From a virus (lineage: Duplodnaviria > Caudoviricetes): a DNA stretch of 52,282 nt. A program made the position numbers and the translations under genes. The notes below the pieces were generated by a model. That model had not been told where the DNA came from and made no database searches. It saw only the letters and a program-made list of their open reading frames with translations. This document shows, one piece after another, positions 2,924 to 45,363 of the stretch. Numbering within the stretch: the stretch's first letter is position 1; each line of letters begins with the position of its first letter. The stretch lies in the IMG/VR virus record IMGVR_UViG_3300006789_000002, positions 1-52,282 of that record. One strand, 5' to 3'.

Positions 2924-2941
2924 TTTTAAGGAGTTATAAAT

Positions 2942-5900: not shown

Positions 5901-6109
5901 CAGCTCAAAATATGTTAGAAGTAGATTCTGAATTACCCACAAAAAATATAGACCCACTTTATAATGTAGAAGATGGCGTTAGTGCTGATGATGAATATTA
6001 CACAATGGATTATAATAGAATTACGCCATTCTTAATTGAAGCAGTAAAAGAATTAAAAACAAAACTAGAAGCAGCAGAAGCTAGAATAGCAACATTGGAG
6101 AGTGAATAA
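2942..6109 (+). CDS. Tail fibre 1 with C-terminal intramolecular chaperone (peptidase S74-like)
   Basis: GVGIGT and MRI repeats; YSDENLKKEI...GVTFKW...GVTAQ...LIEAVKEL plus coiled coil. Confidence 0.85.
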   Translation: MAVKFTNNARTTLAADISNSATTATVTSGSVFPVLNAGEYFYCTFDNGTNNEIVKVTARSGNTLTIVRGVDNTTARAFSTDDAAELRATAGLLTDIQENIAAKSANQTVYNATTASSATDYDIGIDPGLESNAMVFLNGVMQHHDTFSFSGSTLTFDTAPSNGLALEVIVDNLINLQSSNLTVDTFTAADVGGNPQVDFVLSDAPAGETNLIVFVDGVFQANDTYTISSTTLSMTDGVTADMTVTVYVMNPVNIGAPSDNTVTSSKLSGNITMPADLTVTGDVAFDSPTFVVDNANSRVGIGTASPSTLLDIVGDVKMSANLTVDTDTLHVDATNNRVGIGTTNPQGTFVVSNSGAGGFEFTPDTTSFSVANSNYIASYDRSASAYRDIVVDLGGAESQAVRFKAGGSVGIGTSAPLAKLDVRMSDSNGDYGRGRDGNLNLENTNTSVTEGGWLSISGYMGNSASNGQYQMGYISGGKQTTAADGDYGGYLTFWTTSSGANGEANSGGYERMRIDSSGQLLLGTTTSDSLLSVDIQNTSASSNNTLVRIKNTIGSEDAGLIIDGNNSGQNEYRIGVNTVADTSDLTFSGGTGYRFYTGSTEAMRISSNGQVLLTAAHPSIQFTDSSDNSDAYIQADGGTLRFFADDNNEVGSSFQSFHVDGSEKMRIDQSGSLLVGKTEDGGSNPGHVFFGAGAAYHIRDGGFTNYFNRKSSDGEILRFAKDGSTVGSIGASVGDLTIYSSSNNHCGLRFTSGGLAPVDDDGALVADTVDIGQSSWKFKDLHLSGGAYVYEVQTQTLGLGSTVAGASVGTNYSEPKGVFWHNGGGMTDYAIYRTPGAWSGNYQQLKLDWDTGIIIDGGTAYGKSGVHIHGNISMGDSTYSNFTSPNYPVHICADNYGLMIESATGYGHLGSNNTSYFHFGGNRNFYFDNRCEASGGFHTYSDENLKKEITVIPSALNKVAKMNGVTFKWKDAAKRGGGDAGKQFGVTAQNMLEVDSELPTKNIDPLYNVEDGVSADDEYYTMDYNRITPFLIEAVKELKTKLEAAEARIATLESE

Positions 6110-7639: not shown

Positions 7640-9670
7640 ATGGCAAAGACAAAGATACCAGGTGAATATTTAAAAGACTCAGTAGTACGCTTCACGGCTA
7701 AGGCGGGGGAAAATATAACCAAGGGACAAGCTGTATATATCTCAGGCATATCAGGAGAAGTCCCAGTAGTATCTTTAGCAGACGCAGATGATACAAATAA
7801 AATGCCAGCCTTCGGTCTTGCCGAATCAACCGTCTCAACAAACGCATCAGTAGAAGTAACAAGCAACGGAACTCTAGCAGGAATAGACACGTCCTCTTAT
7901 GCACTCGGAGATATACTGTATATATCTACAACAGCAGGATCTTTAACAAACGATCCCTCTGGACTAGAGGCAAGCAAAGTACAGAACATTGGTATGGTGC
8001 AAAGGGTTCATGCCAACAACGGATCTATCAAGGTGGGCGGAGCGGGGAGAACAAATGCAACCCCAAATCTTAATGACGGAAACATATTCGTAGGTAACTC
8101 CAGTAACAAGTCCGTAGCAGATTCATTCACAGATGTATTAAACGATCAGGCTGGAATTAACTCCAGTGCTAACGCCACAGCTATAACTATTGATAGTAGT
8201 GAGAATGTTGGAATTGGGGTTACGCCAAAAGCATATCATTCAGACTATAAAGCTATAGACATCAATAATAGTGCTAGTGTCATGGGTTATACAGGTAACA
8301 ATGGTGCTTGGCTAATGGAGAACTTATATTATGATGGTAACTGGAAACATAAAAATAGTGATTTTTCAGCCTTGGTTGAAATGTATGATGGTGTTTTTAA
8401 TTTCTATAATACTGTTTCAGGAACAGCAGGAGCAACAGCAACTTTACAAAATCGTTTAAAAATTGACCAATCAGGCAATGTTGGAATTGGAGCTGATAGT
8501 CCTACAAGTTATTATTCAAGAAGTTTAGTAGTTTCTGCTACTGCTGAACAAGGTATTACTATAGCTGCAACTGGAACTAGCATGTCAAACTATCTTATGT
8601 TTGCAGACGGTACTACAGGAAATGAAGCATATCGTGGTTACATAGCTTATAGTCATACGAATGATAAAATGGCATTTGCTGCTGGTGGTGAAGAAAAAAT
8701 GTATATTGACTCATCAGGCAATGTTGGAATTGGAATTAGTAATCCAGCAGACTACAATTTTGATACTGGTGTAAATTTAGTTGTTGGAAGCTCTAGCACA
8801 AATGGTCAAATACAAGTTTTATCAGGAACAAGCGGTATAGGTTATTTAGCTTTTGCTGATGGAGTAACTGGAGCAGAAAACTACAGAGGTCTTATTCAGT
8901 ATCATCATGGAAGTAATTACATGGGTTTAAGAACCAATGGCAATGAACGCATGAGAATTACCTCAACAGGTAATTTAGAATTTAAGAGTACAACAACCAC
9001 TTTTACTGGTGCTTCATCTTTTACAAATCATTCAAATGGAGTTTTATATTTAAGAGGTGGAACTTCAGGACTAAGGCTTGATGATAACGATAGTCATAAC
9101 ACAATTCACGTTAGTGGTGCGGGTAACTATATTGCTTTTGAAACTTTAAGTGGAGTAGAACGCTGGAGATTTAACTCAACAGGACACTTCACACCTGCTC
9201 AACAACATACATATGATATAGGCGGAGTTAATGCGGAAGTTAGAAATATTTATGCACAAGGATTATATGTAGGTGGTTCAGCAGCAGCAAACAAACTTGA
9301 CGATTATGAAGAAGGTACTTGGACTCCAGTTCTATCAGGTTCAGGATATGCTTTTGGCACAAATAGTGGAGTATATGTAAAAGTAGGAAGAATGGTAATT
9401 GCAACAGCAAAACTAATTATAACCTCAGTAGGTAGTAATACTTCAGTCATTAGTATATCTGGATATCCATTTACATCATATAGTGCAAATAATAATCACC
9501 AAGTTGGTACTGTTAGAGAAAGTGCAACAACAGGTAAATTTTATGTTTGTCAAATTAATGTGAATAACACTATTGGTAGTATGAATTCAATGGATGGTAT
9601 TAGTAGTGGTAGTAATGAAATATTTACAACAGGTACATACTCTTTATCTATAACTTACATGACAGCATAA
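7640..9670 (+). CDS. Tail/head fibre protein 3
   Basis: N-terminal AGENITKGQAVYI domain, GNVGIG repeats, C-terminal LDDYEEGTWTP...YVKVGRMV tip domain. Confidence 0.8.
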   Translation: MAKTKIPGEYLKDSVVRFTAKAGENITKGQAVYISGISGEVPVVSLADADDTNKMPAFGLAESTVSTNASVEVTSNGTLAGIDTSSYALGDILYISTTAGSLTNDPSGLEASKVQNIGMVQRVHANNGSIKVGGAGRTNATPNLNDGNIFVGNSSNKSVADSFTDVLNDQAGINSSANATAITIDSSENVGIGVTPKAYHSDYKAIDINNSASVMGYTGNNGAWLMENLYYDGNWKHKNSDFSALVEMYDGVFNFYNTVSGTAGATATLQNRLKIDQSGNVGIGADSPTSYYSRSLVVSATAEQGITIAATGTSMSNYLMFADGTTGNEAYRGYIAYSHTNDKMAFAAGGEEKMYIDSSGNVGIGISNPADYNFDTGVNLVVGSSSTNGQIQVLSGTSGIGYLAFADGVTGAENYRGLIQYHHGSNYMGLRTNGNERMRITSTGNLEFKSTTTTFTGASSFTNHSNGVLYLRGGTSGLRLDDNDSHNTIHVSGAGNYIAFETLSGVERWRFNSTGHFTPAQQHTYDIGGVNAEVRNIYAQGLYVGGSAAANKLDDYEEGTWTPVLSGSGYAFGTNSGVYVKVGRMVIATAKLIITSVGSNTSVISISGYPFTSYSANNNHQVGTVRESATTGKFYVCQINVNNTIGSMNSMDGISSGSNEIFTTGTYSLSITYMTA

Positions 9671-10024: not shown

Positions 10025-10183
10025 ATGGATATAATGAGTATGGTTACTTGGATAACCACTATTGTGACTGTTGCATCAATTGTTGCAGCATCCACGCCAA
10101 CACCTAAAGACGATGAGTGGATCGGTAAACTTTATAAGTTTGTAGATCTTCTTGCTCTTAATATAGGCAAAGCTAAACAATAG
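10025..10183 (+). CDS. Small membrane protein, putative holin (52 aa, not in ORF track)
   Basis: MDIMSMVTWITTIVTVASIVAASTPTPKDDEWIGKLYKFVDLLALNIGKAKQ; AGGAG RBS. Confidence 0.6.
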   Translation: MDIMSMVTWITTIVTVASIVAASTPTPKDDEWIGKLYKFVDLLALNIGKAKQ

Positions 10184-11017: not shown

Positions 11018-11834
11018 TTGTGCATTAATAGTAGATCCACTAGAAAATAACCTACCACCTTTTCAGCACATAGAAGAAGCACAGATAGATTCTTTGGTTC
11101 TTGCCGAGCTTGCTAATATAAAATCTAATCAAGACGCAAAGCCAATCGTGGCTATATACTCTGGTGGTTTTACAGACCAGACAGGACAAAGAAGAAGTAA
11201 TAGTAACTACGCAACCTTCTCATCTGCGGTCACTCAGGCACCAGACGCATACTTAATAAGAGCACTCAAGCATGCAGGCATTAATCACAATGGGTTCTTT
11301 GAAGTAGTAGAAAGAGTTGGGTTAGACTTTGTAACCAAGGAAAGGCAAATTATTAGAAGCACCAGACAGGAGTTTGGGGAAAAAAAGAAAATGCAACCTT
11401 TAATGTTCGCTGGCTTGATAATGCAAGGCGGTGTGATATCTTATGAAAGTAATGTGAAGAGTGGTGGTGCTGGTGCAAGATATCTAGGCATCGGAATGTC
11501 TAGACAATACAAACAAGACACAGTAACCATATCACTTCGTACCGTTTCCGTAAGTACGGGAAAAGTACTACTAGAAGTATTAGTAACTAAAACAATACTA
11601 AGTGCCTCTATTGACCAAGATATATTTAGATTTATTACTGACAGTACGGAGTTAGTAGAAGTAGAAAGCGGTCTTGTAAGAAATGAATCAATTAACATAG
11701 CACTACAGACAGCAATAGAGACTGCTGTTTTGCAGACTATAAAGGAAGGTGCTCAAAACGGATACTGGAGTATTTATGAAAAGACTAAAACTATTGATTG
11801 CGATGATGCTTGTGTCTCCGCTATACGCGGCTGA
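10968..11834 (+). CDS. csgG: Curli secretion pore lipoprotein CsgG homologue
   Basis: Lipobox LLSSC; DQTGQRR, FSSAVTQ, VVERVGLD..TKERQIIR, GGVISYESN..SGGAGARYLGIG, LRTVSVSTG, TKTILS. Confidence 0.93.
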   Translation: MEISQKLVCLSAVLLSSCALIVDPLENNLPPFQHIEEAQIDSLVLAELANIKSNQDAKPIVAIYSGGFTDQTGQRRSNSNYATFSSAVTQAPDAYLIRALKHAGINHNGFFEVVERVGLDFVTKERQIIRSTRQEFGEKKKMQPLMFAGLIMQGGVISYESNVKSGGAGARYLGIGMSRQYKQDTVTISLRTVSVSTGKVLLEVLVTKTILSASIDQDIFRFITDSTELVEVESGLVRNESINIALQTAIETAVLQTIKEGAQNGYWSIYEKTKTIDCDDACVSAIRG

Positions 11835-23723: not shown

Positions 23724-26700
23724 GTGGCAGATACATTTGACTTCAACAACCCTCTCGGACTTGACGAGGAGCTAGAAAAAGAAAACTCTTTATTGGGATC
23801 TCCTGATATTGAAAAACCGCAAGAAGAACAGAATTTTGATTCTGTGTTTGAAAAAAACAAAAATAAAAAATTTGTTGATAGGATTATAAATCCAGAAAAC
23901 TATCCCGCTCCAACACTTACTGATTCACAAGGAAGAAAACAAACTCACCTTATGAGTGCAGACCTTGATCAAAATAATGACTGGGTAGTATATCCAAAAA
24001 TTATATTAGAAAATAACAAATATAAAAGAGTCAATATGGAAGAAGCGATTTCTTCTGGAAACTCCATAAACTTCGGAAAAAATCAAGATCTTGCACAGGG
24101 ATTTTCGCAAAACTACAAAACAAAAAAGTTTAAAGAATTTTATAATGAAGATAAGGAGTCTTTTAACTTTGAAGATCCCTTAAGACAAGAATACCTAAGA
24201 AAAACAGCAACGGGTCCAGTTCCTTCTGACTTTGATGGAACTCCAATAGGTTCTGCTGTAAGTTTTATAAACAAGGTTTTTGTAAAACCTTTCGTAACTC
24301 TTTCAGAAGAAGCAGAAGAAAGATATCCAGAATCACCCATTGAAAATTTGCTTTATGCAGGAGATATAACAAAAAGTCTTGCATTTAAAGAAAGAACCGA
24401 GCAGGCTCTTTTTGCCGCAGGTCTGGTAAATGAAGAAGAAACAGCAAAGTACAAAAAGGGCGAGGCTCAATTTGGGGTTGGGGATTATGGTGCGGGGGCA
24501 TATGCAGAATTTTACAACGCGAAACTGCAAATAAGAGCCAAAGATAGATATAAAAATGATGCAAAGTACAAAAAATCTGTAGATGATAATCTTGCAATAG
24601 CACAAAAAGAGTCTATTAAAGAGTTTGCAAAGATTGATAAGGCTATACAAAAAAAGAGGTCTGATAACAACCTTGGACCCTACGGGAGCTCTGTATCTAG
24701 TGCAGTAGAAAGTATTGCTGTTATAGGTACTGGAATGGCTGTAAATTATCTTTCTGGTGGCAGAGCAACCCCAGCTATAACAGGAGGAACGCTTACATAC
24801 TTTGGTTTGCAAACAGCGGCAGCATCTTATTCTGAGGCAAGACAGCAAGGAATACCTCACGAACAAGCCTTTGGTTATGCAAGCATAAATGGAATATTAG
24901 AGGCTGGAACGGAAATGGTTCCAGTTATGAGATTCCTTTCTCCGAGGAGTAAAGGAACAATAAAAGATATATTAAAATTTGACTTAGCGACAGTAGCGGC
25001 TGATGTTACCTTGGAAAATGTTAACAGCTTATTACAAGAACATAACTCGGTCTGGTTTGATTTGGAGTCAGAACTAAAAACCGCATACGATAATCAAAAC
25101 AATCCTCTATATGAAGGAAGGTCTGTATCAGAGGTCTTGGTTGATATTGCTGGGCACACAACTCTTTCATCTATTATTGCGGCTGGATCTATATCTGCGT
25201 TTAGAAGCACTGGGGGTATTATATACAGTGATGAGGTTAAAACGCTTATAAGGAATCAAAAAGATAATCCCGAGCTTGAGTTGTTTATTGAAAACTTTTC
25301 AAATAATGTTAACAACTTACAATTAAACTACAACGCAATTGATAGTGCATCAAGAATACTTTTAGATCCAAACACCAACGGCAAGGGGTGGACGGCAGAT
25401 GAGGTGATCGCATTAGAATACTTTAACCAGCCATTTATAGATTTTAGAAAGCCTTTGGTAGTTGGAGAAGAGGGTGAAGTTTCTCAGCCAGATGACTATG
25501 TAGAATCCCTTGAGTTAAAGTTTCCAGCAAAAAAACAAGAAGAGTTTAATTTTGAAGACCCTCTATCAGGCGGATTGAAAAAGAAGGTTGCAGGACCCTT
25601 AACTTCTGAAATAGATTTAGACCTGTCTCCAATAATAACTCAAAGACTTGACGCAAACATAAACCTTCTTGAGGCAGACTTGCCGACTAACCCAACTTTA
25701 AATATAGACCAGATAAGAAATGACTCATATGATCAAAAGGAATTAGATCTAACAAAAAGTTTAATTATAGATACAAGAACCTTTGAAGAAAAATTCCTAG
25801 AAGAGCCATCTGGAGAACAAAAGTATTACAGGTTCAGGGACTTAAACAACGAAGAGGGTATAAATGCCTCTAAAGGAATTATAGATCTAACCAAATCAGG
25901 AATGCCACTGGATATATTTACAGATCTTGACTTTCTTGGTGCTCATACCAAAGACAATAGATATAAAACATTCGATGCCTCATATGGTATCTATATGCCA
26001 ACACTTAGGGGTGTATCTTTCTCACCTATTTCTGGAATATCAGAATTAAACTTTACAAATAAGCTAGGGTCTAAACTAAATTTAAGATCAACCATAGCCC
26101 ATGAAATGGGACATCATATAGACTTTACAATTGGAAGATCTCCTAGCGATAATCTTAATGTACTTCAGCCAGCAACAGCAGAATCTCCTTTATTTAATTT
26201 ACCAAACTTTAGCTACAACGAAAGTACGGGAGCTCTAGATATTGCAGATAATTCTGGTGGAGAAGTAATGAGAGAGGCTCTTAGAATGTTTAATGAGGGT
26301 CAGAAGGGCAAATACTATGACGGCAACATGCTTAGATATCCATTCAATGAAATGATTGCAATGAATGGAAGTATGACTCCAGCCCAAGAAAGAATGATTA
26401 AGGCGGAGGTATTTGGTCAACTTCATGAATTATATTATACTAATAGATCACTGCTAGAAGAGAAGGCTCCAACAGCACTAAAATTAATAGAGGAACTGAA
26501 CGATGCAATTTCAATTGACGGAACTACAAAGAAAGCTCAGAGAGTACAACTTGCTTTTCAAACACCCAGTGCCCAGCGAAGTGTTGAGGTTTCAGACAGA
26601 AGAACAGACGCTGAAAATGATAGATCAGGCGATAGCGTCCCAGAAGCCAGTGCAAGATTGGTTGGACAGGAAGAATCTACAGACGGGGACCGTGTTCGAC

Positions 26701-29700
26701 CTGAAATACCAGAACTAGAACAGGTAAAAACAACAGGTCAAGTAAAGGGAGCTCCAGAAGGAATGGACTCCAAACAAAAGGTAGGGGCACTCAGACGAAA
26801 AATGAGAGGTCTTGCAGAGCAAGGAGTCTCTCAAAGATTCTGGTATGAGCAAAGCGGTCAAGCTCTACTGGATATAACAAACAACAATAAAGAAGACGCA
26901 GATAAACTTGCACAAGTTATTGCAATAACATCACCAGGAAATAAAGTAGAAACAAACTTCAACTACGCATTACAAGCTTATTATCAATATATTGCTGGAG
27001 AAAAAGTAAAGACTGGAAGATTCCCTCAAACGGCGAGCAAAAAAATAGCTAATGTTTTTGAGGGCAAGGACTGGAGCGGAAGAAAAACCAACGAATTTTA
27101 TAACAACATTATGAGGGTCATAGATCCTTCTAGAATACAGGGAGTAACTGTAGATGTTTGGATGGTGAGAGCATTTGGCTTTGACACTGACGCCCCAACA
27201 CCTGCACAATACACGTTTGTAGAAAACGAAGTGCAAAAAATATCCAACCAACTTGGTTGGGAACCTCAACAGGTACAGGCTGCTATATGGACGGCACAAA
27301 AAGCTATTGGTGATAAGACCGATGTAAATGCCGCTGGGTTTAATTATGCCAGTGCACTAGACAAGTCACTAGGTCAAATAAGCTGGGAGTCTATACCAGG
27401 AAGAACATCAGGGCATATGCCTGAGATGTTTAATGTGCCATACGAGCAGTTACAGGAATACCATGTTGCAATATCAAAAGCCCTGCAAGATGAAAACGGA
27501 TCGGATTTTATTGCCAACACCCTGGGAATACTGTCGCCTGGAATAGTTGAGGCACCAGGGTTCTTTGAGGGCAAGGTAAGCCCAGGATCACAAACACAGA
27601 TAGCCCTAACAAAAATATACAAGGCAGATCCTAAAACTGAATTTGCAAAACTAGAACCTGCGGCAGAGGACCTAGCAAAAGCATACTCAGCAGCCATTGG
27701 AATACTTTTAAAGCAGGACGGTATTGGGTATCACAAACCATTCTTCCAAAAGGGAATAGCCAAGACTAAGTTAAATGGAATGGATATTAATATAGGAAGA
27801 CCATTAACTGAAAACGAAACACAGATGATTGCAGAGGCAATGGAAAAAGAGTCAGGAATTAAGGACTATAATCCTATAGGGACAGCAAATGGTGCGAGGC
27901 TAATTAACTTCTCATACCTTGACATACCAAACTTAAAATTCAAAAAGATTGTAACCAATGTTTTAGATGGTGTACAATTTGAAAATAACGAAGATGTTGA
28001 CCTTGGACAATTTGCGTCCAGCGAAGGATATCTTTCTAACGACTGGAGTAAAAATAAAAATGGCGAAAGTTACATTGAGAGTATTAGAGGAATCTCACCC
28101 GATCTTCAAAGAAGGGTTGAGAATATCGTCAGGGACCTCAAACAGAGAATTGATGAAGTCGACCAAACCTTCTCAGAAAAATACGGATGGACAAGAGATG
28201 AATCAATCAACTCAAACTACACAGGACAAGCAGACCTAACTCCACCAACCTTATCTAAAAAGGTTCTACCAGAAGAAGAATCTCAATTCGATATTTACGA
28301 GACAATGACATCTAACGATGCATCTCAACTATTTCAAGCATTTTCTTTTTTTCAGGAGCAGGCTGTAGATAAACTAGACAGGCTAAAAGCTTTTGAAGAA
28401 AAGCTAGGAAAATTAGTTAGTCCAAAAGAAATGAGAAGACTATCTGTTGTAAGAAAAACAGATGTGTATCATGGAAAGGTTAAGTACGGAATGGACAAGG
28501 CTGTTGAGGCAACCACAGAAATATCTGAGTTCTTAAATAGCGTCAATATAACAAGAGAAGAGTTCAACGATTTTCTCAAAAACCTGCACGCCCCAGAAAG
28601 AAATAAAAAGATCAATGAAAAATACAACAAAGAAATACCCGAGCTTGAGGCTGAGCTTCTTGCTGAAACAGAAAAGGGAAAAAGAACTGTTCTTAAAGGA
28701 AAGATTACTAAAAGAAAAAATGTATTAGCAAAATATCAGGACAGCGGATCTGGAATAAAAACAGATAAAGCGATTGAGACTCTTGAGTCTCTTGGAATTA
28801 AGTTTAATGAAAAGACAAACAAGGCAAGTGCAAGCAATGAAAAGGGCAAGAACCTCTTAGATGCATTCAAGCTATTTGAATCGTATCAGCAGGACACATT
28901 AAACATATACAGAGATCAGGATCTTGTAGACGAACAAACCCTAGAGGACTGGGATAGCTCATATAGATACTATGTACCACTAGTTGGATTCTCTGTTGAA
29001 ACTATTGAAGACAACTCACCAAGAGCAACTGGTGGTGGAATAAGTGTCTTTGGAAGAGAGGTGATGGAAGCTAAAGGAAGGACCTCTGAGTCAGGACCAC
29101 CTCTAGAACAGGCTGTTATAAGAAGGCAGTCGGCTGTGGTTCGGGGAGAAAAGAATTTCATAGACAAATCCTTGGCTGAGCTTGTTAATACATTCCCAGA
29201 TAAAAAGCTATGGCAGGTTAGGGGTGTAAAAAGAAACGAAAGACCTCATAAATGGGATGGAAGGGAATCTAAGATAGGATTTAAAGAAAACGGCAAACAA
29301 AAGTTTATTGTTATAAGAGACGAGAGACTGGCGAAGGGATTAGATGCTTGGGGAAATAACAGCATGCATTGGTCAATTGGCGTTATGAGAGGGCTAACAG
29401 GAACGCTGTCAAGCCTATATACATCCCTTGCCCCAGAATTTATTGTTGGAAACTTCTTTAGGGATTACCAAACTGGGTACTTTAATCTACTAAAAGAACA
29501 AGAGATAGAGGGCGGGCGAGCACAGAACCTAGATCTAGCAAAGGCGTTTAAGCCAAACAATATAGCCAAGACAATGAGGCAACTTAAGGATGGCTATGTA
29601 ACCAAAAGCCTACAAGAAAAAGATCCAGAAACATTTGCACTCTTTGATGCGTTCCAGAAGTTTGGAGGTCAGACTGGTTATGTGAATGCCAAAGACATAG

Positions 29701-31175
29701 ATCAAATAGCAAAAGCCATGGAGGAGCTTTCTTTAGTTCACTCTGGAAAGAGAAAGGTAAATGCTAAGAAGGTTTATAACTCAACATTTAAAATGGTTGA
29801 GAACATAAACAATGCTATTGAAAATACTGCAAGGTTTGCTGTCTTTAAAGAATACATTAACGCCGCTGGCGGTACAAAGAAAGCATCCAAACAAGACTTC
29901 GATGATGCCGCGGTTCTGGCAAAGAACCTAACTATAAACTTTAATAGATCTGGAAAACTTGGACCTGTAGTTAACGCACTTTATATTTTTGCAAACGCAT
30001 CTGTTCAGGGTTCTGTAAACATGTTTAGAGGAATGAACCCAATAGGATTTGAGGATGGAAAAGTTGTTTGGAGCGGGGTTTCAAAGTCTGCAAAAAATAT
30101 AATGGGCGGTCTTACTGGTCTTGGTGCACTTGTGCAAATGTACTCAATGTTGGTATCAGATGAGGACGAGGATGGAAGACTCCTTATTGACAAGATACCA
30201 GATCACGAAAAAGAAAGATTCATGGTTATACCAATACCTGGCGTAAAGTTTCAGGATGGCGAGGTTAAATTTAATAAATACAGCAGAAGATATACCGTTA
30301 ATGGCAAGCCATTTGCGTTAGCTATTCCTTTGCCATATGGATATAACATATTCTATAATCTAGGAAGAATGGGAACCGAGGTGGCAAGCAAACCAATACT
30401 TGGATACCAAAAAAGAACGCCAGTAGAAATGAGCAAGGATATGGCTGGAATAATATCTGGAGCATTCTCCCCAGTAGGCATAGGTTATTCTCAAGATCAG
30501 GGAATAGATTATTTAAAAACAGCAGTCCCATCGATAGCTAAGCCATTCTATGAATCCAGAGTAAATGAAAAGTGGACGGGAGCACCAGTCTACAAAGAAC
30601 AGTACCCAGGAACTGCGGAAATTCCCAAGTCATCAAGAAAACTTAGAAACACCAATGAGTTCTATAGAGAATTTACAATGATGATTAACAGTGCTACTGG
30701 TGGCGGTAAGTTCGATAAAGGAATGGCTGACTTCAGCCCAGACAAAATGAAGTTCTACTTGCAGTCCTATCTCGGTGGTATGTATACCATGGCTGAAAGA
30801 ACAGCATCAATATCAGGAAAGATATACAACAACCTCACAAAAGGAACAAACGAAAGCATTGAGCTAAATGAGGTTCCATTTATCAGGGTTCTTACGGCAG
30901 ATCCAATGGACTATGTTGATGCAGGCAACTTTTACAAAAAGAAAGAACTTATATCTCAAAAAGCTAGTGAATATATAAGCTATAAGAAAGATAGCAACAA
31001 GGCTGCATTAAGAGACTATGTAGAAAGAACAGGGTTTGATTCAGAATATCTTAAGCTAGACAAAGCTGTAAAAGGAGCAGACAAAGAACTTAGAAAATTA
31101 AATCAGAAAGAAAAGACAATTATGAATTTAAGAGAAAGGATTACGCAAGGTATTCAAGATTGTCAGATCAGATAG
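23724..31175 (+). CDS. Giant polyvalent ejection protein (HExxH peptidase-like, HhH-glycosylase-like, C-terminal LPD38); C-terminus possibly frameshifted to 31267
   Basis: AHEMGHHID; FWYE..AITSP..KTNEFY..VTVDVWM..QVQAAIW; AKNLTINFNRSG..FANASVQG..IPLPYG..NEKWTGAPV. Confidence 0.8.
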   Translation: MADTFDFNNPLGLDEELEKENSLLGSPDIEKPQEEQNFDSVFEKNKNKKFVDRIINPENYPAPTLTDSQGRKQTHLMSADLDQNNDWVVYPKIILENNKYKRVNMEEAISSGNSINFGKNQDLAQGFSQNYKTKKFKEFYNEDKESFNFEDPLRQEYLRKTATGPVPSDFDGTPIGSAVSFINKVFVKPFVTLSEEAEERYPESPIENLLYAGDITKSLAFKERTEQALFAAGLVNEEETAKYKKGEAQFGVGDYGAGAYAEFYNAKLQIRAKDRYKNDAKYKKSVDDNLAIAQKESIKEFAKIDKAIQKKRSDNNLGPYGSSVSSAVESIAVIGTGMAVNYLSGGRATPAITGGTLTYFGLQTAAASYSEARQQGIPHEQAFGYASINGILEAGTEMVPVMRFLSPRSKGTIKDILKFDLATVAADVTLENVNSLLQEHNSVWFDLESELKTAYDNQNNPLYEGRSVSEVLVDIAGHTTLSSIIAAGSISAFRSTGGIIYSDEVKTLIRNQKDNPELELFIENFSNNVNNLQLNYNAIDSASRILLDPNTNGKGWTADEVIALEYFNQPFIDFRKPLVVGEEGEVSQPDDYVESLELKFPAKKQEEFNFEDPLSGGLKKKVAGPLTSEIDLDLSPIITQRLDANINLLEADLPTNPTLNIDQIRNDSYDQKELDLTKSLIIDTRTFEEKFLEEPSGEQKYYRFRDLNNEEGINASKGIIDLTKSGMPLDIFTDLDFLGAHTKDNRYKTFDASYGIYMPTLRGVSFSPISGISELNFTNKLGSKLNLRSTIAHEMGHHIDFTIGRSPSDNLNVLQPATAESPLFNLPNFSYNESTGALDIADNSGGEVMREALRMFNEGQKGKYYDGNMLRYPFNEMIAMNGSMTPAQERMIKAEVFGQLHELYYTNRSLLEEKAPTALKLIEELNDAISIDGTTKKAQRVQLAFQTPSAQRSVEVSDRRTDAENDRSGDSVPEASARLVGQEESTDGDRVRPEIPELEQVKTTGQVKGAPEGMDSKQKVGALRRKMRGLAEQGVSQRFWYEQSGQALLDITNNNKEDADKLAQVIAITSPGNKVETNFNYALQAYYQYIAGEKVKTGRFPQTASKKIANVFEGKDWSGRKTNEFYNNIMRVIDPSRIQGVTVDVWMVRAFGFDTDAPTPAQYTFVENEVQKISNQLGWEPQQVQAAIWTAQKAIGDKTDVNAAGFNYASALDKSLGQISWESIPGRTSGHMPEMFNVPYEQLQEYHVAISKALQDENGSDFIANTLGILSPGIVEAPGFFEGKVSPGSQTQIALTKIYKADPKTEFAKLEPAAEDLAKAYSAAIGILLKQDGIGYHKPFFQKGIAKTKLNGMDINIGRPLTENETQMIAEAMEKESGIKDYNPIGTANGARLINFSYLDIPNLKFKKIVTNVLDGVQFENNEDVDLGQFASSEGYLSNDWSKNKNGESYIESIRGISPDLQRRVENIVRDLKQRIDEVDQTFSEKYGWTRDESINSNYTGQADLTPPTLSKKVLPEEESQFDIYETMTSNDASQLFQAFSFFQEQAVDKLDRLKAFEEKLGKLVSPKEMRRLSVVRKTDVYHGKVKYGMDKAVEATTEISEFLNSVNITREEFNDFLKNLHAPERNKKINEKYNKEIPELEAELLAETEKGKRTVLKGKITKRKNVLAKYQDSGSGIKTDKAIETLESLGIKFNEKTNKASASNEKGKNLLDAFKLFESYQQDTLNIYRDQDLVDEQTLEDWDSSYRYYVPLVGFSVETIEDNSPRATGGGISVFGREVMEAKGRTSESGPPLEQAVIRRQSAVVRGEKNFIDKSLAELVNTFPDKKLWQVRGVKRNERPHKWDGRESKIGFKENGKQKFIVIRDERLAKGLDAWGNNSMHWSIGVMRGLTGTLSSLYTSLAPEFIVGNFFRDYQTGYFNLLKEQEIEGGRAQNLDLAKAFKPNNIAKTMRQLKDGYVTKSLQEKDPETFALFDAFQKFGGQTGYVNAKDIDQIAKAMEELSLVHSGKRKVNAKKVYNSTFKMVENINNAIENTARFAVFKEYINAAGGTKKASKQDFDDAAVLAKNLTINFNRSGKLGPVVNALYIFANASVQGSVNMFRGMNPIGFEDGKVVWSGVSKSAKNIMGGLTGLGALVQMYSMLVSDEDEDGRLLIDKIPDHEKERFMVIPIPGVKFQDGEVKFNKYSRRYTVNGKPFALAIPLPYGYNIFYNLGRMGTEVASKPILGYQKRTPVEMSKDMAGIISGAFSPVGIGYSQDQGIDYLKTAVPSIAKPFYESRVNEKWTGAPVYKEQYPGTAEIPKSSRKLRNTNEFYREFTMMINSATGGGKFDKGMADFSPDKMKFYLQSYLGGMYTMAERTASISGKIYNNLTKGTNESIELNEVPFIRVLTADPMDYVDAGNFYKKKELISQKASEYISYKKDSNKAALRDYVERTGFDSEYLKLDKAVKGADKELRKLNQKEKTIMNLRERITQGIQDCQIR

Positions 31176-40306: not shown

Positions 40307-40474
40307 GTGATCTTATATAGCGAACAGGAATTACATACTGCCTACAGGAAATATGTAGCCTCGTTTAAAGAAACCCCACATTTAATTATCCCAACCTTTA
40401 AAGAATTTAGAGAAATCTATGAAGAGTATTGGGACTGGTACTTTAGCAATGAGCAAAAAAGAAGAACTCATTAA
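40307..40474 (+). CDS. Hypothetical protein (55 aa, GTG start, not in ORF track)
   Basis: ILYSEQELHTAY...PTFKEFREIYEE; fills the gap. Confidence 0.45.
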   Translation: MILYSEQELHTAYRKYVASFKETPHLIIPTFKEFREIYEEYWDWYFSNEQKRRTH

Positions 40475-40646
40475 TCTATTTAAAGAAAAGGGATTCGAGA
40501 GAGTTTCTCTTCGATGGATTCCAACAAACCCCTACGGCAAAAGACACAAGTTGACTGGATGGATTTACAGAATATCTGGTGACGATGAGTGGTCTGTTCT
40601 TGGGAAAAACTTTGAGGATTCATCAAGGGCTATCGATCTCTTATAA
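40449..40646 (+). CDS. Hypothetical protein
   Basis: Last rightward ORF before the terminator. Confidence 0.5.
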   Translation: MSKKEELINLFKEKGFERVSLRWIPTNPYGKRHKLTGWIYRISGDDEWSVLGKNFEDSSRAIDLL

Positions 40647-40684
40647 ACAAAAAAGCGGAGTAAGGACCCCGCTTTATTTTTGTT
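40646..40684. terminator. Bidirectional intrinsic terminator between convergent operons
   Basis: AAAAAAGCGG-agtaaggacc-CCGCTTTATTTTT. Confidence 0.65.
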
Positions 40685-40688
40685 CGAT

Positions 40689-40838
40689 CTATTTTTTCTT
40701 TCTGTGTTCCTCCTCATAAGTAGTAAACCTTTTCTTACATCTCAGGCATTCCCTTCGTCTTTTGATGATCTCTCCATCAATGATCTTACGGACATCAACA
40801 ACCCTTGATCCTGATCCACATTCTGAACAAGTCATCAT
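40689..40838 (-). CDS. Stand-alone NrdR-type zinc-ribbon protein (49 aa, not in ORF track)
   Basis: [43 protein letters not shown] matches the NrdR N-terminal C-x2-C...V-x-D-x-R...RRREC-x2-C-x2-RFTTYE; GGAGG RBS; ATGA coupling. Confidence 0.85.
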
Positions 40839-41164
40839 TCCACCTCCCAAGGTTCATAGTTTTGAAGATCATCTTCGTGATAGTATTCCATGCTCCAGAT
40901 CGTTCTAGCATCCCACTTACAAGAAAAAATACCAGAGTCCTTTAGATCATAAAAAAGATTCCAAAATTTCTCACGTCTTTTTTGAACAACAGAACTTCCA
41001 AAGTCCGAACAAATCATATGTCCAATATCTCTTTTATTCTGAGCATCTAGGAACTTTGCTACTCTGTGCCTATCTTTCCAATCTATTGGAATGATCTTGT
41101 TGATAGAACTCATCCCAAACTTTGACATATCTCCAGAGACTGAAGCCAAACATAACTTAATCAT
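40835..41164 (-). CDS. Hypothetical early protein
   Basis: GGAGG RBS before ATG 41164. Confidence 0.6.
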
Positions 41165-41660
41165 TACGCACCTCCTCTGGTCTATATTCCCAAACATCGT
41201 AGTCACCAATGAGCTCACTAGTAACAACATCAAGCAGGGCTTTGGATAGCCAATAAGCGTCAGACTGCATCCAATCTTCATGCTCACATGACTGGTACAT
41301 ATAACAATTAATCATTCCGTAAAGGTCCTTAGTACTTACTCTAGGGTAGCCCTTAGTTCTTGACTGACATTGATTGACATAAAGTAGGATCATACTTTCA
41401 TCAAACTCATTGTCCTCGCCCTCAGGGTTCCATGTAAAGAAACTCTTCCAGCTATCAGGATATCTAGCCTGTAGGCTTGTAACATTAGCCCTTGCTAGTA
41501 TCTCAACCGCCTCCTGCGGGGAAGAAAAAGAAATCTTCTCCTTCGTAACCAAGTTATAGGCATGACTAACAATCTTGTCACTAGACATGGGCACACTACC
41601 GTTACCAAAGAACTTACCCATCTCACCCATATGATCAGCATTACATAAAAACGCACTCAT
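41157..41660 (-). CDS. Conserved hypothetical early protein
   Basis: MSAF.C, NV.SL.ARY, CY.YQSCEH..W..SDA; GGAGGTG RBS. Confidence 0.7.
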   Translation of the reverse strand: MSAFLCNADHMGEMGKFFGNGSVPMSSDKIVSHAYNLVTKEKISFSSPQEAVEILARANVTSLQARYPDSWKSFFTWNPEGEDNEFDESMILLYVNQCQSRTKGYPRVSTKDLYGMINCYMYQSCEHEDWMQSDAYWLSKALLDVVTSELIGDYDVWEYRPEEVRND

Positions 41661-41869
41661 TATTTCACCTCCTTGATTAAAACTGTTCGCATTATTTCTT
41701 CTACGCCATCAGCAATATTGCAGAACTCGTCTTGTTTCTCTTCTGTCTTGGTGCCATCATCATTATAGATTGGGTCAATTGATGAATACTCTAAGACATA
41801 GTCAGAAAGTCTAGCGTAGAGCTCAACCCACTTTTCAGCGGGTAAAGTTATTTTATTAATCCCGTCCAT
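41660..41869 (-). CDS. Hypothetical acidic early protein
   Basis: GGAGGTGAAATAATG coupling. Confidence 0.65.
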   Translation of the reverse strand: MDGINKITLPAEKWVELYARLSDYVLEYSSIDPIYNDDGTKTEEKQDEFCNIADGVEEIMRTVLIKEVK

Positions 41870-42009
41870 TATTTCACCTCCCTTAGTGTTTCATGATCTT
41901 CTTCAGTTGATTCACCATCCAAGACTCTTGATAGAGCCTTGAGCTGGTCCGTGTTTAGATTATCCAATACATCTAAATTGAATATTCCTAAGTTATTAAA
42001 TTGGTCCAT
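41869..42009 (-). CDS. Hypothetical early protein (46 aa, not in ORF track)
   Basis: MDQFNNLGIFNLDVLD...; GGAGGTGAATAATG coupling. Confidence 0.6.
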   Translation of the reverse strand: MDQFNNLGIFNLDVLDNLNTDQLKALSRVLDGESTEEDHETLREVK

Positions 42010-42191
42010 TATTCACCTCCTAGTGTTATTAAACCTTGTTCTATTAAACCCATTGCAGTTCTACCAAACCAGCCCTGAAGTTGCCAAGCAAGACCAGTGT
42101 CAACTAAATGTTGCCATGCCTCCCTGACTTGATCCTCATGATCAGCTGGAATGAATCCCTCTGCAATACCTACAGCTGTGTAATTATCCAT
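42009..42191 (-). CDS. Conserved small early protein
   Basis: AWQHLVDTGLAWQLQGWFGRTA motif; TAATG coupling gives start 42191. Confidence 0.7.
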   Translation of the reverse strand: MDNYTAVGIAEGFIPADHEDQVREAWQHLVDTGLAWQLQGWFGRTAMGLIEQGLITLGGE

Positions 42192-42298
42192 TATGATTGA
42201 CCCCCAAAAGCTAAAGCGTATGCCAGTGCAATTGATAGGGCTATTGGCGTACATATTATGATTGCGAACAACGTGTAAGTAAGTCTATCTATATCCAT
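42191..42298 (-). CDS. Single-TM peptide (35 aa, not in ORF track)
   Basis: MDIDRLTYTLFAIIICTPIALSIALAYALAFGGQS; GAGGTG RBS. Confidence 0.55.
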   Translation of the reverse strand: MDIDRLTYTLFAIIICTPIALSIALAYALAFGGQS

Positions 42299-42300
42299 TG

Positions 42301-42480
42301 TTACACCTCTCTCTTTAATGCAACCCACTCAAACTTGTAACCAAGCTTCTTGAGAAGATTTAGATCAAGATCAGAAAAGGTCTTGGTTCCCTTGAAAGAT
42401 GCAAGCATCTTGCCTTGGATACAGGCTGGATAAACAAGCTCATTTCCAAATACGTTTTTTATTATCAGTTCTATTGTCAT
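42301..42480 (-). CDS. Hypothetical early protein (59 aa, not in ORF track)
   Basis: MTIELIIKNVFGNELVYPAC...GTKTF...LKKLGY; AGGAGG RBS directly after hammerhead C. Confidence 0.7.
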   Translation of the reverse strand: MTIELIIKNVFGNELVYPACIQGKMLASFKGTKTFSDLDLNLLKKLGYKFEWVALKREV

Positions 42481-42501
42481 ATTTCCTCCTACGGTTTGTT
42501 T

Positions 42502-42569
42502 GACTAAGACCTCCTCGATTCGCGGGGAAAAGAGAAGGTTTCGACCAATCAGGTCATCATCAGTTAGCC
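42502..42569 (-). ncRNA. Type I hammerhead ribozyme C
   Basis: GGCUAA-CUGAUGA-U-GACC(UGAUU)GGUC-GAAA-CCUUCUC(15 nt)GAGGAGG-UC|UUAGUC. Confidence 0.85.
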
Positions 42570-42952
42570 TATGAGTGAAAGAACATATCCCAGCTACGAA
42601 CTATGTCGTATACGTTGTACTCAGAACCATTCTTGATAGCCTCAGCAAGATCATTGAAGACCGCCTTTCTATACTCATACCTGTCAGGCTTGTTGATGGT
42701 GTAGCCCTTGTCCATGAAGTAGGCATAGCTTTCTATGATCCCATAATCCTTGGACTGCTCTTTGGTGATCCATTTAGCCATGTCTTCTGCTTGATCATGA
42801 AAAGATTTTTTGAGCTCAACATATTTCAAGAAGTTGCCGTGGTTGATTAAAGACAATTCATCCTTATCAGCTGTACCCATAATCTTAGTAGCAATAGCCA
42901 TTTCTTTTTCCCAAGTTAGTTGAGCATCAGTTTTAGTATTTAGTTTTGTCAT
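42569..42952 (-). CDS. Hypothetical early protein between hammerheads B and C
   Basis: AGGAGGT RBS; stop codon abuts hammerhead C. Confidence 0.75.
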   Translation of the reverse strand: MTKLNTKTDAQLTWEKEMAIATKIMGTADKDELSLINHGNFLKYVELKKSFHDQAEDMAKWITKEQSKDYGIIESYAYFMDKGYTINKPDRYEYRKAVFNDLAEAIKNGSEYNVYDIVRSWDMFFHS

Positions 42953-42976
42953 ATTTACCTCCTAAGTAATTGTTTT

Positions 42977-43028
42977 GACTAAGACTCCCCGTGGGGAGTT
43001 TCGCTCACTAAGAGCTCATCAGTTAGCC
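42977..43028 (-). ncRNA. Type I hammerhead ribozyme B
   Basis: GGCUAA-CUGAUGA-GCUC(UUAGU)GAGC-GAAA-CUCCC(CACG)GGGAG-UC|UUAGUC. Confidence 0.93.
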
Positions 43029-43516
43029 TATTCTCCATCAAAGTAAGCTGTCCAAGACCTCTCCAAGTTGAAGGTAAGTGTATGAGTTTTGCCATTATTA
43101 TATGTATCGCCTTGAGACATAAAAACTGAGTCAAAATAATTTCTTTGAGAAAAGTGATCCATCGCCTGACGCTCTAAAGCCCCCATGAATCCCTCAAACC
43201 TTTCAGCGTGCTCAGATGGAATCTCACTTGTAAATCTAGCAGAATATATGTGCCTCACACAGTCATCTCCACGATTGATGTTTTGTGCTGTAAAGTTGGT
43301 CATGAAAGCCCAGTCAAGATCAACACCTCTTAGTCCAAGCTTGTTATATGCAAATTCAAATATCTCATTATGAAACCACATAAGGATGTTGTCATAGTCC
43401 TCCCATCCATCAAGTCCGCTTTTATAAAAAGCAGTTCGCCCTGCATAATGCTTATCAGTTGGATCAAGCGTTGTGCTGTTGTTTATTAGTTCTAGTTTTT
43501 TTGTTAATGTTGTCAT
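43028..43516 (-). CDS. Hypothetical early protein between hammerheads A and B
   Basis: AGGAGG RBS; stop codon abuts hammerhead B. Confidence 0.75.
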   Translation of the reverse strand: MTTLTKKLELINNSTTLDPTDKHYAGRTAFYKSGLDGWEDYDNILMWFHNEIFEFAYNKLGLRGVDLDWAFMTNFTAQNINRGDDCVRHIYSARFTSEIPSEHAERFEGFMGALERQAMDHFSQRNYFDSVFMSQGDTYNNGKTHTLTFNLERSWTAYFDGE

Positions 43517-43537
43517 ATTCCCTCCTACGGTTTGTTT

Positions 43538-43587
43538 GACTAAGACGCCTCACGGCGTTTCGCTCATTAAGAGCTCATCAGTTAGTC
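43538..43587 (-). ncRNA. Type I hammerhead ribozyme A
   Basis: GACUAA-CUGAUGA-GCUC(UUAAU)GAGC-GAAA-CGCC(GUGA)GGCG-UC|UUAGUC. Confidence 0.95.
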
Positions 43588-44052
43588 TTATCTATAGTAA
43601 GCATCAAAGGCTGGTGATAAGTGTCTTGGAGTATTTTTTCTCTCCATAAACTTAGTGCCACAAACTTTATTAGTGCGTTCAACCATTGGTTCGTTTTCAT
43701 AAAAGTAGTCGTAAGTCACCACCTCTGAATTGCAAAGATTCTGATAGGCACTCCAGTCGCTATTCCATTGCTTCATCTCTTCGCGATGGGCATCTCTCCC
43801 TTCCTGTGTTGCATACTGGTTAGGACCATTAACCTCTTCTGTGTATCTTCCAGTTTCATAAAGATTGTTGATGTAAGAGTGAGTGTCATTAAGATCATCT
43901 TCAAACCATCCCAAATGATGTTTCTTCATTCTAGTAAGATAGCTTTTAGCTTTAGCTGGAGTATCCCACTCCTTACGCTTGCAATATCTAAACCCAGTTT
44001 TTGGGTTATATATCACGTAAGTTACTGATTTGTCGTTATTTATTGTTGTCAT
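43588..44052 (-). CDS. First gene of the early operon, hypothetical
   Basis: AAGGAGG RBS before ATG 44052; AKAKSYLTR and VERTN..G.KF.E..NTP...SP..YY motifs. Confidence 0.75.
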   Translation of the reverse strand: MTTINNDKSVTYVIYNPKTGFRYCKRKEWDTPAKAKSYLTRMKKHHLGWFEDDLNDTHSYINNLYETGRYTEEVNGPNQYATQEGRDAHREEMKQWNSDWSAYQNLCNSEVVTYDYFYENEPMVERTNKVCGTKFMERKNTPRHLSPAFDAYYR

Positions 44053-44092
44053 AAGTGCCTCCTTTGGCTGTTTGTTTGTAAACAATGAATAC

Positions 44093-44122
44093 ATATTAAT
44101 GCCATACTATATGTAGTGTCAA
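44093..44122 (-). promoter_or_regulatory. Sigma70 promoter of the early operon
   Basis: TTGACA (44122-44117)-18 nt-TAATAT, A/T-rich upstream. Confidence 0.7.
44104..44119. promoter_or_regulatory. Putative NrdR box overlapping the -35 element and spacer
   Basis: ATACTATATGTAGTGT matches the consensus acaCwAtATaTwGtgt at 14/16 positions; single copy. Confidence 0.6.
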
Positions 44123-44215
44123 CAAATTTCTGCAATTATTTTTTTGATCTATAGAAATGTTTGTCTTGATCCTGTATCTTTATTTCATCATCAACAGAAC
44201 TTTTATTTGAAGGCA

Positions 44216-44485
44216 ATGGATACATCAGGAATAGAAATGCGTATAGCAAACCTTGAGAAACATATGGAAGAGGTCCTTTCATTTGTAAGGCACATACCAG
44301 TGCTTGAAGAAAGAGTTGGGAGATCATTGAGTCAGTCTTCAGATCATGAGATCAGACTAAGGACTCTTGAGAAATCACAGATGAGAGATAACGTGCAATC
44401 CAAGTGGGCTGAAAGAATTATTGGCGGTGTTGCAATTGGTTCTATCATGGGTATTGGCGGAGCAATATTTACTTATGTTCTTTAA
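44216..44485 (+). CDS. Coiled-coil protein with C-terminal TM (holin/lysis accessory-like)
   Basis: RIANLE..RLRTLE heptads, terminal hydrophobic helix; directly upstream of the putative endolysin. Confidence 0.55.
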   Translation: MDTSGIEMRIANLEKHMEEVLSFVRHIPVLEERVGRSLSQSSDHEIRLRTLEKSQMRDNVQSKWAERIIGGVAIGSIMGIGGAIFTYVL

Positions 44486-44906
44486 GAAAAATGATCAAGC
44501 GGACGCAACGCTGGAGAGATTCGCATACTTGCCTGATGGAACTCTTGGCAAACTAACAATAGATGATCAAGTCTTTTGGATCGCAGAGCGTCCTTGGCGG
44601 GGAAATAAAAAAGAGATCAGCTGTATACCAACTGGCACATATACATGTAAGGCATATACATCAAAAAGATTTGGCAACACATTCGAGATCACAGACGTAG
44701 AAGACAGAACATACATACTATTCCATGTAGGAAACTTCCCTGAGAAGGACTCACACGGATGTCTTCTTGTAGGCGAGAGCTTAATGAAGGGAACCACCGC
44801 AGTATCATCAAGCAAGGTGGCAATGAAACGATTCAGGGAAACACTTAAAGATGTTGAAGAGTTCGAGATCGAAGTCAAAGACACCACACCATACGACTGG
44901 TCATAA
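44475..44906 (+). CDS. DUF5675-like protein (L,D-transpeptidase-like putative endolysin)
   Basis: TLGKL..ERPW..N..SCIPTGTY...RTYILFHVGN...DSHGCLLVG. Confidence 0.75.
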   Translation: MFFKKNDQADATLERFAYLPDGTLGKLTIDDQVFWIAERPWRGNKKEISCIPTGTYTCKAYTSKRFGNTFEITDVEDRTYILFHVGNFPEKDSHGCLLVGESLMKGTTAVSSSKVAMKRFRETLKDVEEFEIEVKDTTPYDWS

Positions 44907-45363
44907 GACTAGAACGTGCAAGACTTGTTTAATCAACAAGCATATAGATGACTATGAGGTAGCTAAGGGCTACAAGAGAAGAGAATGTCGAACCTGCCGT
45001 TCCGCGGGGAAAAGAAAAAAGATCAGCAATAGTCCATATCTTTATATAAACAACCTACACGGACAACTAGCATACAGAAGGAAGAAGACACACGAGTTTA
45101 GTGTAGAGAGAGAAGACCTACATGATCTATACGATAGACAGGAAGGAAGATGCCAGTACTCAGGAGTTGCCATGACTCACATTAAGGATGGATCAGGCAA
45201 GTACCTTAGTAATATCTCTATTGAAAGAATCGATAACAGTGTTGGATATGTGAAGGAGAACATAGCACTTGTCTGTCTTGCCTGTAACATGATGAAGTAC
45301 ACCTTGGACTTAAAAGAATTGCTGAACTGGTGTAAAATGATCACACAACACAATGAGGATTAA
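44851..45363 (+). CDS. HNH-like endonuclease with Zn fingers
   Basis: CKTC..CRTC; Q.GRCQYSG; SIERIDNSVGY..NI.LVC..CN.MK; start uncertain. Confidence 0.75.
   Translation: MLKSSRSKSKTPHHTTGHKTRTCKTCLINKHIDDYEVAKGYKRRECRTCRSAGKRKKISNSPYLYINNLHGQLAYRRKKTHEFSVEREDLHDLYDRQEGRCQYSGVAMTHIKDGSGKYLSNISIERIDNSVGYVKENIALVCLACNMMKYTLDLKELLNWCKMITQHNED

Follow-up and report, generated by a model that had tools for sequence, protein, structure and literature searches.

Three type I hammerhead ribozymes between the first genes of a phage operon, predicted to cut its transcript

An operon with hammerheads in its first three intergenic spaces

The complete viral genome IMGVR_UViG_3300006789_000002 (52,282 bp, with direct terminal repeats) was analysed over its whole length, which we refer to as the window. 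In one of the operons of this marine phage the first three intergenic spaces each hold a hammerhead ribozyme of type I (HH1, HH2, and HH3). Positions are those of the whole 52,282-nucleotide (nt) stretch, and the coordinates of the hammerhead operon are on the minus strand. Here, 44122-40652 forms one predicted transcription unit with a promoter-like site, ten genes, and a single terminator. Its features are listed below in the direction of transcription, with protein lengths in amino acids (aa).

44093..44122, minus strand: sigma-70-like promoter (TTGACA, 18 nt spacer, TAATAT), 10 of 12 consensus positions
43588..44052, minus strand: gene 1, 154 aa, no known family
43534..43589, minus strand: hammerhead 1 (HH1, type I), stem I span 43587-43538, predicted cut 43544/43543
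43517..43543, minus strand: leader 1, 27 nt from the predicted 5'-OH end to the gene 2 ATG, with an AGGAGG site
43028..43516, minus strand: gene 2, 162 aa, no known family, protein cluster c9
42973..43030, minus strand: hammerhead 2 (HH2, type I), stem I span 43028-42977, predicted cut 42983/42982
42953..42982, minus strand: leader 2, 30 nt to the gene 3 ATG
42569..42952, minus strand: gene 3, 127 aa, no known family, cluster c0
42498..42571, minus strand: hammerhead 3 (HH3, type I), stem I span 42569-42502, predicted cut 42508/42507
42481..42507, minus strand: leader 3, 27 nt to the gene 4 ATG, its first 23 nt the same as in leader 1
42301..42480, minus strand: gene 4, 59 aa, cluster c1, first gene of the fragment predicted to stay polycistronic
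40689..42254, minus strand: genes 5 to 10, with GGAGGTG sites and overlapping stop and start codons, without hammerhead (no model match)
40652..40675, minus strand: intrinsic terminator closing the operon, the sole terminator-like site in 40400-44600

All three units follow the order stem I 5' strand, CUGAUGA, stem II hairpin, GAAA, stem III hairpin, GUC, and stem I 3' strand, and every invariant hammerhead position is present in each of them. Their topology is that of type I, with stem I open and stems II and III closed by loops. The 5' strand of stem I reads GACUAA or GGCUAA, and the 3' strand is UUAGUC throughout. Two copies share the stem II GCUC/GAGC and the third has GACC/GGUC, while stem III has three different sequences that all pair, the one in HH3 being long (8 pairs and a 15-nt loop). 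The copies are spaced 459 and 559 nt apart; they bound genes 2 and 3 and follow gene 1. An earlier sequence-only reading of the locus had described a complete type I hammerhead in each of the first three intergenic spaces, with a covarying stem II, differing but paired stems III, and a cut after each GUC. Renewed reading of the minus strand returned the same structures, the same three cuts, and leaders of 27, 30, and 27 nt. The pattern CTGATGA..GAAA..GTCTTAG was found 3 times, whereas 100 dinucleotide shuffles averaged 0.00 matches, and the CTGANGA heptamer alone was not enriched (22 matches, 28.6 expected). For the isolated elements the minimum-energy fold was the three-way junction (z = -3.0, -1.7, and -1.9 for HH1, HH2, and HH3), and HH1 and HH2 retained it when flanking sequence was included.

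The hammerheads had been said to begin at the stop codon of the upstream gene, which can be made more precise: the TAA of gene 1 stands directly before stem I of HH1, and in front of HH2 and HH3 the stop is a TAG whose G is the first nucleotide of stem I, so that one nucleotide is shared. The leaders behind the predicted cuts are short and alike, as had been claimed. Gene 1, whose leader derives from the promoter, has a leader of the same design (CAAACAAAC..AGGAGG) and of similar length, which fits the idea of a standard translation start region.

Promoter-like sites occur in the region at chance level (13 compared with 11.3 expected), and the promoter assignment therefore rests on its position and on conservation. 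Over 44400..44040 promoter and leader are kept in the related contigs L094 (96.9% identity) and L061 (93.1% identity). The operon transcript would start near 44086. We looked for promoter-like and terminator-like sites at the three hammerhead junctions and found none. The junctions of genes 5 to 10 are of a second repeated type, in which GGAGGTG is combined with a TAATG or ATGA overlap.

None of genes 1 to 4 matched an entry in PHROGs or in Pfam, and a protein atlas gave no usable match for genes 2 and 3. Gene 5 matches DUF7417. The last gene of the operon (40689-40838, minus strand) encodes a 49-aa NrdR-like zinc ribbon (PF22811, E = 8e-16) without the remainder of NrdR.

A hammerhead subfamily placed between stop and start codons

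We scanned IMG/VR with an exact pattern in which the stem I of the window was fixed, and obtained 143 pattern matches on 104 stretches. One hundred distinct copies were aligned, 3 from the window and 97 from the other loci; three copies on contig L048 were omitted, being identical to those of the window. Of the 1477 cells of this alignment 99.4% pair, and compensatory changes are found in 291 cells compared with 68 ± 15 in shuffled alignments, with 0 of 500 shuffles reaching 291. When the partner was slid by one column, pairing fell to approximately 40%. Stem I is invariant in this alignment because the search pattern fixed it.

A covariance model (R1) was built from these 100 copies. In the window it scored HH2 at 76.4, HH1 at 71.7 (E = 8e-14), and HH3 at 65.8 bits, and the next best match in the whole genome, with filters off, reached 11.7 bits. 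In 100 loci there were 173 R1 matches at E up to 0.01, and eight further sources yielded nine matches below E 1e-6 and a weak one at E 0.54. Some matches carry other stem I sequences, and from these it is seen that stem I covaries as well. In an alignment of 68 distinct copies fitted to the model, which leans towards the model's own structure, compensatory changes were seen in 14 of 15 pairs, including five of the six in stem I. The core positions are invariant in 68 of these 68 relatives, the free N position aside. Conservation extends beyond the core to the A before stem I (68/68), two A after stem I (61/68 and 59/68), and U1, A3, and U5 of loop II (68/68, 56/68, and 55/68), positions at which natural hammerheads would be expected to bring stem I and loop II together, a tertiary contact needed if cleavage is to be fast at low Mg2+. 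When loop II was compared by mutual information with its flanks (12 nt upstream or 14 nt downstream), neither a paired signal nor a pseudoknot emerged. Among 137 distinct hammerhead-plus-leader sequences the cleavage triplet is GUC in 130, GUA in five, AUA in one, and UUA in one, and the nucleotide before the cut is never G. These data support the view that the window elements are real type I hammerheads with an intact catalytic core, whose stems covary across more than 100 viral contigs.

Rfam models had been proposed as a check on the elements, and at gathering thresholds they returned 0 matches in the window. In E-value mode, Hammerhead_HH9 (RF02275, clan CL00010) scored HH1 at 19.7 and HH2 at 16.0 bits with a cut-off of 52, RAGATH-1-hammerhead (RF03152) scored HH2 at 23.2 bits with a cut-off of 56.3, and HH3 had no Rfam match even in this mode. 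RAGATH-1-hammerhead is likewise of type I with a short open stem I, and the hammerhead catalytic core is common to both; by score, however, the window elements differ from HH9 and RAGATH-1, reaching only 16-23 bits against those cut-offs. The same was seen in relatives, where Rfam at gathering thresholds made 0 hammerhead calls in 14 loci that carry 43 matches of our purpose-built model. Annotation based on Rfam thus overlooks a common hammerhead subfamily in viral metagenomes.

Placement relative to open reading frames (ORFs) was counted for the 137 distinct sequences, with 2740 random positions on the same strands as control. All 137 have a same-strand ORF start within 90 nt past the cut, compared with 39.5% of random positions, and in 110 of them the start lies 20-35 nt past the cut (8.1% of random positions). 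The median distance from cut to start is 28 nt, with quartiles of 26 and 31. Upstream stops were analysed in the 127 copies preceded by at least 30 open codons, and in 102 of these the stop falls between -3 and +7 relative to the nucleotide with which stem I begins. The stops make use of conserved ribozyme nucleotides: a TAG, or a TAA or TGA, on the conserved A and G, the TAA in CUAA, and the TGA in CUGAUGA. Upstream ORFs are distributed over the three frames as 62, 53, and 12, and the depleted frame is the one for which the ribozyme supplies no stop. The downstream ORFs are small (median 89 aa) and fall into 80 clusters; for representatives of the 20 largest, a Pfam match was found in three (Kyano_Gp96, DUF932, and a borderline YodL-like match).

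A structure-checking scanner, run on the loci and the window, found 179 type I hammerheads, and c0, the cluster of gene 3, is the commonest gene cluster flanked by them (18/179). A locus strand carries one copy in 63 cases, two in 21, three in 16, four in three, five in one, and nine in one. Contig L004 has six model matches. Contig L065 has ten, nine of them approximately 360-520 nt apart in an array at 2806-6445 and the tenth at 7513-7578; stem I sequences and triplets (GUC, GUA, AUA, and UUA) vary between its copies. The L065 leaders are rich in A and C and have no AGGAGG-type ribosome-binding site, a hint that their host initiates translation in another way.

Two model matches (44.0 and 42.6 bits) are found in the cultured Pelagibacter phage Eistla EXVC025P (MT375521.1, Autographiviridae), at 8785-8849 and 10039-10108 (L111 2740-2804 and 3994-4063). 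They occupy the unannotated gp15/gp16 and gp19/gp20 spacers, between small genes and upstream of the RNA polymerase gene, and the gp19 stop codon lies inside stem I. The exact pattern with the same stem I was also present in two Daejeonella genomes and one Bacteroidetes metagenome-assembled genome (L108 3796-3858, L110 539-598, and L109 541-598), and these copies may be prophages. On another hammerhead-bearing contig, L023, a Betaproteobacteria-1 RNA (RF02932) was found at 11640-11764 on the minus strand with 97.4 bits (cut-off 49.4), a possible hint at the host of that contig.

In the window, the plus strand from approximately 45366 onwards carries the genes of both terminase subunits (small and large), the portal, and the major head protein; a DnaB-like helicase, a replication initiator, and a RecE-like exonuclease are among the further products of the genome. 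Its portal is 31-36% identical to counterparts in 53-55 kb phages of marine Alphaproteobacteria, including Pelagibacter HTVC115P and HTVC033P and Roseobacter CRP-3, CRP-13, and CRP-212. These five are the nearest cultured relatives by portal, and none of them has a model match; blastn of 41000-45000 against cultured phages likewise gave no match. The element is patchily spread over unrelated phage types. Two further products of the plus strand are a 2483-aa protein from a single ORF in the structural module (23724-31175) and a 170-aa protein (44851-45363) upstream of the small terminase gene with an endonuclease VII / HNH match (phrog_1035, E = 1e-20).

Predicted self-cleavage and the explanations that compete with it

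We consider it likely, with a probability of approximately three in four judged from sequence and comparative evidence, that the operon transcript cuts itself at three defined sites. From the anatomy, conservation, covariation, and genomic context observed above, we infer cleavage, its timing, and its effects on stability and translation as follows. One transcript of ~3.4 kb would run from the promoter at ~44122-44093 to the terminator at ~40675-40652, and the three elements, acting as functional type I hammerheads, would cut co-transcriptionally after each GUC. The products would be single-gene mRNAs of ~543, ~561, and ~475 nt for genes 1, 2, and 3 and a remaining fragment of ~1.86 kb that carries genes 4 to 10. 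The sequence-only reading had the polycistron processed into monocistronic mRNAs, and this would hold for genes 1 to 3 but not for the fragment behind HH3, which would keep seven genes together. Hammerhead cleavage leaves 5'-OH and 2',3'-cyclic phosphate ends, and with the type I topology the whole ribozyme is left on the upstream fragment. The upstream fragment would thus retain its stop codon on or beside the first ribozyme nucleotides, and its 3' end would consist of two hairpins and the cyclic phosphate. The downstream fragment would begin with the 5'-OH and six ribozyme nucleotides (UUAGUC), followed by a short unstructured CA-rich leader with a ribosome-binding site. A likely effect is that translation and decay of neighbouring genes would be uncoupled, and another that each gene would be given an identical translation start region, whatever sits upstream. 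The operon is presumably an early one. Any stabilisation of the mRNAs by their 5'-OH ends would depend on host RNases.

Several observations weigh against this reading. The Rfam hammerhead models score the elements far under their thresholds. HH3, when folded with its flanks, has a minimum-energy fold without stem I, and it carries an extra U between CUGAUGA and stem II, adjoining the core; the extra-U variant is also present in 17 of the 137 distinct relatives. Stem I has only six pairs, and neither a pseudoknot nor a tertiary contact with covariation was found, so that the elements need not be active at physiological Mg2+. In 48 of 127 copies the upstream stop is internal to the ribozyme (+3 or +7, in stem I or the core), where terminating ribosomes must unfold the ribozyme, and cleavage could for this reason be conditional instead of constitutive. 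A 5'-OH is not generally stabilising; in Bacillus subtilis, the 5'-OH product left by the glmS ribozyme is broken down by RNase J1. A search of public runs for RNA runs covering the region listed none. One run labelled as cDNA (X20, graded as probably DNA, share 0.07) gave a single 375-nt contig at 42580-42954 that holds gene 3 alone. This contig is uninformative on cleavage because the DNA contigs of runs X10 and X16 break at the same repeated hammerheads.

Another possibility, which we take seriously while holding it for less than even odds, is that the ~85-100 nt hammerhead-leader junctions act mainly or additionally as DNA linkers, at which recombination permutes, deletes, and swaps small genes. 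The genes would then be ribozyme-bounded cassettes, and the ribozyme would secure neighbour-independent expression of a newly placed gene, so that this explanation is compatible with self-cleavage. The order of protein clusters is c9-c0-c1 in the window and c0-c9-c1 in the contig L094 (completeness rated at 91%), and the same gene is preceded by different stem III types in the two; L016 has the order c9, c1 and L010 the order c2, c1. The ends of the homology blocks shared by the window and L094 (44044, 43546, 42946, 43029, 42474, and 42510) all fall in the promoter-leader segment or in a segment made of hammerhead, leader, and first codons. L061 and L094 share the promoter and leader with the window at 93-97% identity, yet they have another first gene, and window gene 1 showed no homology to the gene behind the matching leader in L061 (E = 3.4). 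Of 67 upstream protein clusters, 17 precede more than one downstream cluster, and cluster 0 precedes seven. In two public runs, DNA contigs connect different hammerhead copies, with skips of 459, 500, and 495 nt, and one public-run DNA contig has gene 3 ahead of gene 2 with 255 nt on its shorter side.

Most of these metagenomic joints, however, have only 30-31 nt on one side and may reflect assembly effects at repeats. Homology to relatives is interrupted at the junctions of genes 5 to 10 too, which have no hammerhead, and the mosaicism is accordingly not specific to hammerheads. Any repeat recombines, so that exchange could be a by-product and not a function, and covariation of the stems points to selection on the RNA fold, which recombination alone does not need. 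Comparison of the ribozyme variant with its neighbours gave, for identical stem III, 31 of 159 pairs with the same upstream and a different downstream cluster and 19 of 135 for the reverse, a difference too small to call. Since homology breaks further down the operon as well, cassette exchange at the hammerhead junctions is a plausible second role or by-product. Tentatively, the two functions might be united in one portable junction, which at the RNA level would provide a stop, a cut, and a standard leader and at the DNA level a crossover repeat of ~85-100 nt for small orphan genes near a promoter of marine phages. If so, this would be a ribozyme-bounded gene cassette system in which any gene placed between two junctions is expressed independently.

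A conditional form of cleavage appears unlikely. According to this explanation the terminating ribosome unfolds stem I, and the balance of translation and folding sets the fraction of transcripts cut and hence the ratios of neighbouring proteins. Regulated cleavage of phage hammerheads was raised in the consulted parts of Perreault et al. (PMC3088659). The clustering of stops at -3 to +7 of the stem I start, the depletion of the frame in which the ribozyme has no stop, and the competing fold of HH3 in its context are all consistent with it. On the other hand, the overlap of stop and ribozyme may merely be genome compaction, and hammerheads usually fold and cut within seconds during transcription.

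It is quite improbable that we are dealing with intergenic repeats, selfish or neutral, or with decayed ribozymes, spreading without a role in gene expression. The elements are patchy, being absent from the five nearest cultured relatives by portal and present twice in a T7-like pelagiphage, and many copies adjoin unrelated genes. Against this stand the invariant core, three stems preserved by compensatory change, the strict strand and stop-to-start placement, with most starts 20-35 nt past the cut compared with few of the random positions, and the promoter-proximal location of the copies in relatives of the window.

Least probable of all, and very much so, is that fragments between two hammerheads are ligated into circular or rearranged RNA: the three window copies have the same stem I, with UUAGUC as the common 3' strand, so that a fragment can pair, through its 5'-OH end, with the ribozyme that it carries at the 3' end, and hammerhead reversal and RtcB-type ligases both act on 5'-OH and 2',3'-cyclic phosphate ends, but neighbouring copies in L065 and L004 have different, non-interchangeable stems I. 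Spliced or circular products were sought in PMC3088659, and in the consulted parts of that study none are reported as found.

Comparison with known systems

In phage T7, RNase III cuts the early polycistronic mRNA between genes and leaves a hairpin at the upstream 3' end and 5'-phosphate and 3'-OH ends. The predicted processing of the window operon is alike in action, with defined cuts between early genes and a hairpin on the upstream mRNA. It differs in that the catalyst would be RNA and not a host protein and the ends would be 5'-OH and 2',3'-cyclic phosphate, and there is no homology between the two.

RiboJ is a satellite-RNA hammerhead followed by a hairpin, and it stays on the downstream mRNA. 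The likeness is again one of action, as self-cleavage strips variable upstream sequence and gives the downstream gene a constant 5' end. The sequence-only reading had called the array a natural RiboJ-like insulator, and this is apt for the function but not for the layout: in the window only UUAGUC would remain downstream, the ribozyme body would stay on the upstream mRNA, and the downstream leader would be unstructured. The strict layout of stop, ribozyme, leader, and start is in itself a natural design with which genes within an operon could be insulated.

The PeSL cassettes of T4-type phages consist of early promoter and stem-loop repeats that flank small early ORFs and mediate modular shuffling. 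They share with the window and its relatives the repeated regulatory junctions on either side of small orphan genes and a gene content and order that differ from one relative to another. Unlike in PeSL cassettes, the junction here is a ribozyme and a leader inside one transcript and not a promoter with a terminator-like stem-loop. A possible route by which phages reshuffle accessory genes is suggested by the permuted orders.

The closest precedent is found in Perreault et al. (2011; PMC3088659), of which the consulted parts state that prophage genes, singly or in short blocks, often have multiple hammerheads at their flanks, and propose that long phage transcripts are processed into single-gene mRNAs. 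Three triple clusters, those of Clostridium scindens, Azorhizobium caulinodans, and Agrobacterium tumefaciens, are described there as cleaving in vitro, and one as cleaving in vivo in E. coli. A 2019 review (PMC6765202), in the parts drawn on, repeats the processing idea and calls the role of bacterial and phage self-cleaving ribozymes "largely elusive". The window has three close copies on the coding strand that flank single genes, and the arrays of PMC3088659, as far as the consulted parts describe them, likewise have coding-strand hammerheads in phage DNA within a few hundred nt of one another that flank single genes, and these genes differ in identity. The earlier suggestion of an undescribed system has therefore to be given up, since clustered gene-flanking phage hammerheads and the same processing proposal are already present in that study; the array belongs to a known kind.

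Within this kind the family has features of its own. The examples in the consulted parts of PMC3088659 mix types I, II, and III, many with pseudoknots, while the window family is uniformly of type I, with a six-pair stem I, a four-pair stem II with a 5-nt loop, the stop on the ribozyme, and a leader of ~28 nt. It also differs from them in its arrays of up to 10 copies and in its occurrence in free phage genomes from marine and other viral metagenomes. Some family members may already be listed in the alignments of PMC3088659. Beyond these two sources, our literature search, which did not extend to subscription journals and supplements, found no later account of this subfamily or of ribozyme-bounded cassettes. 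What we consider new and noteworthy is the invisibility to Rfam, a stop codon carried by the ribozyme, the uniformity of the leader, arrays with as many as ten copies, the presence in a cultured pelagiphage, and the permutation of cassettes with breakpoints in the junctions. With more than 130 distinct copies of one fixed architecture, predicted cuts that are precise to the nucleotide, and arrays of 3 to 10 copies, the family offers a well-defined object for the question of what such ribozymes do in phages, and the two copies in unannotated spacers of the cultured phage Eistla make RNA end mapping feasible.

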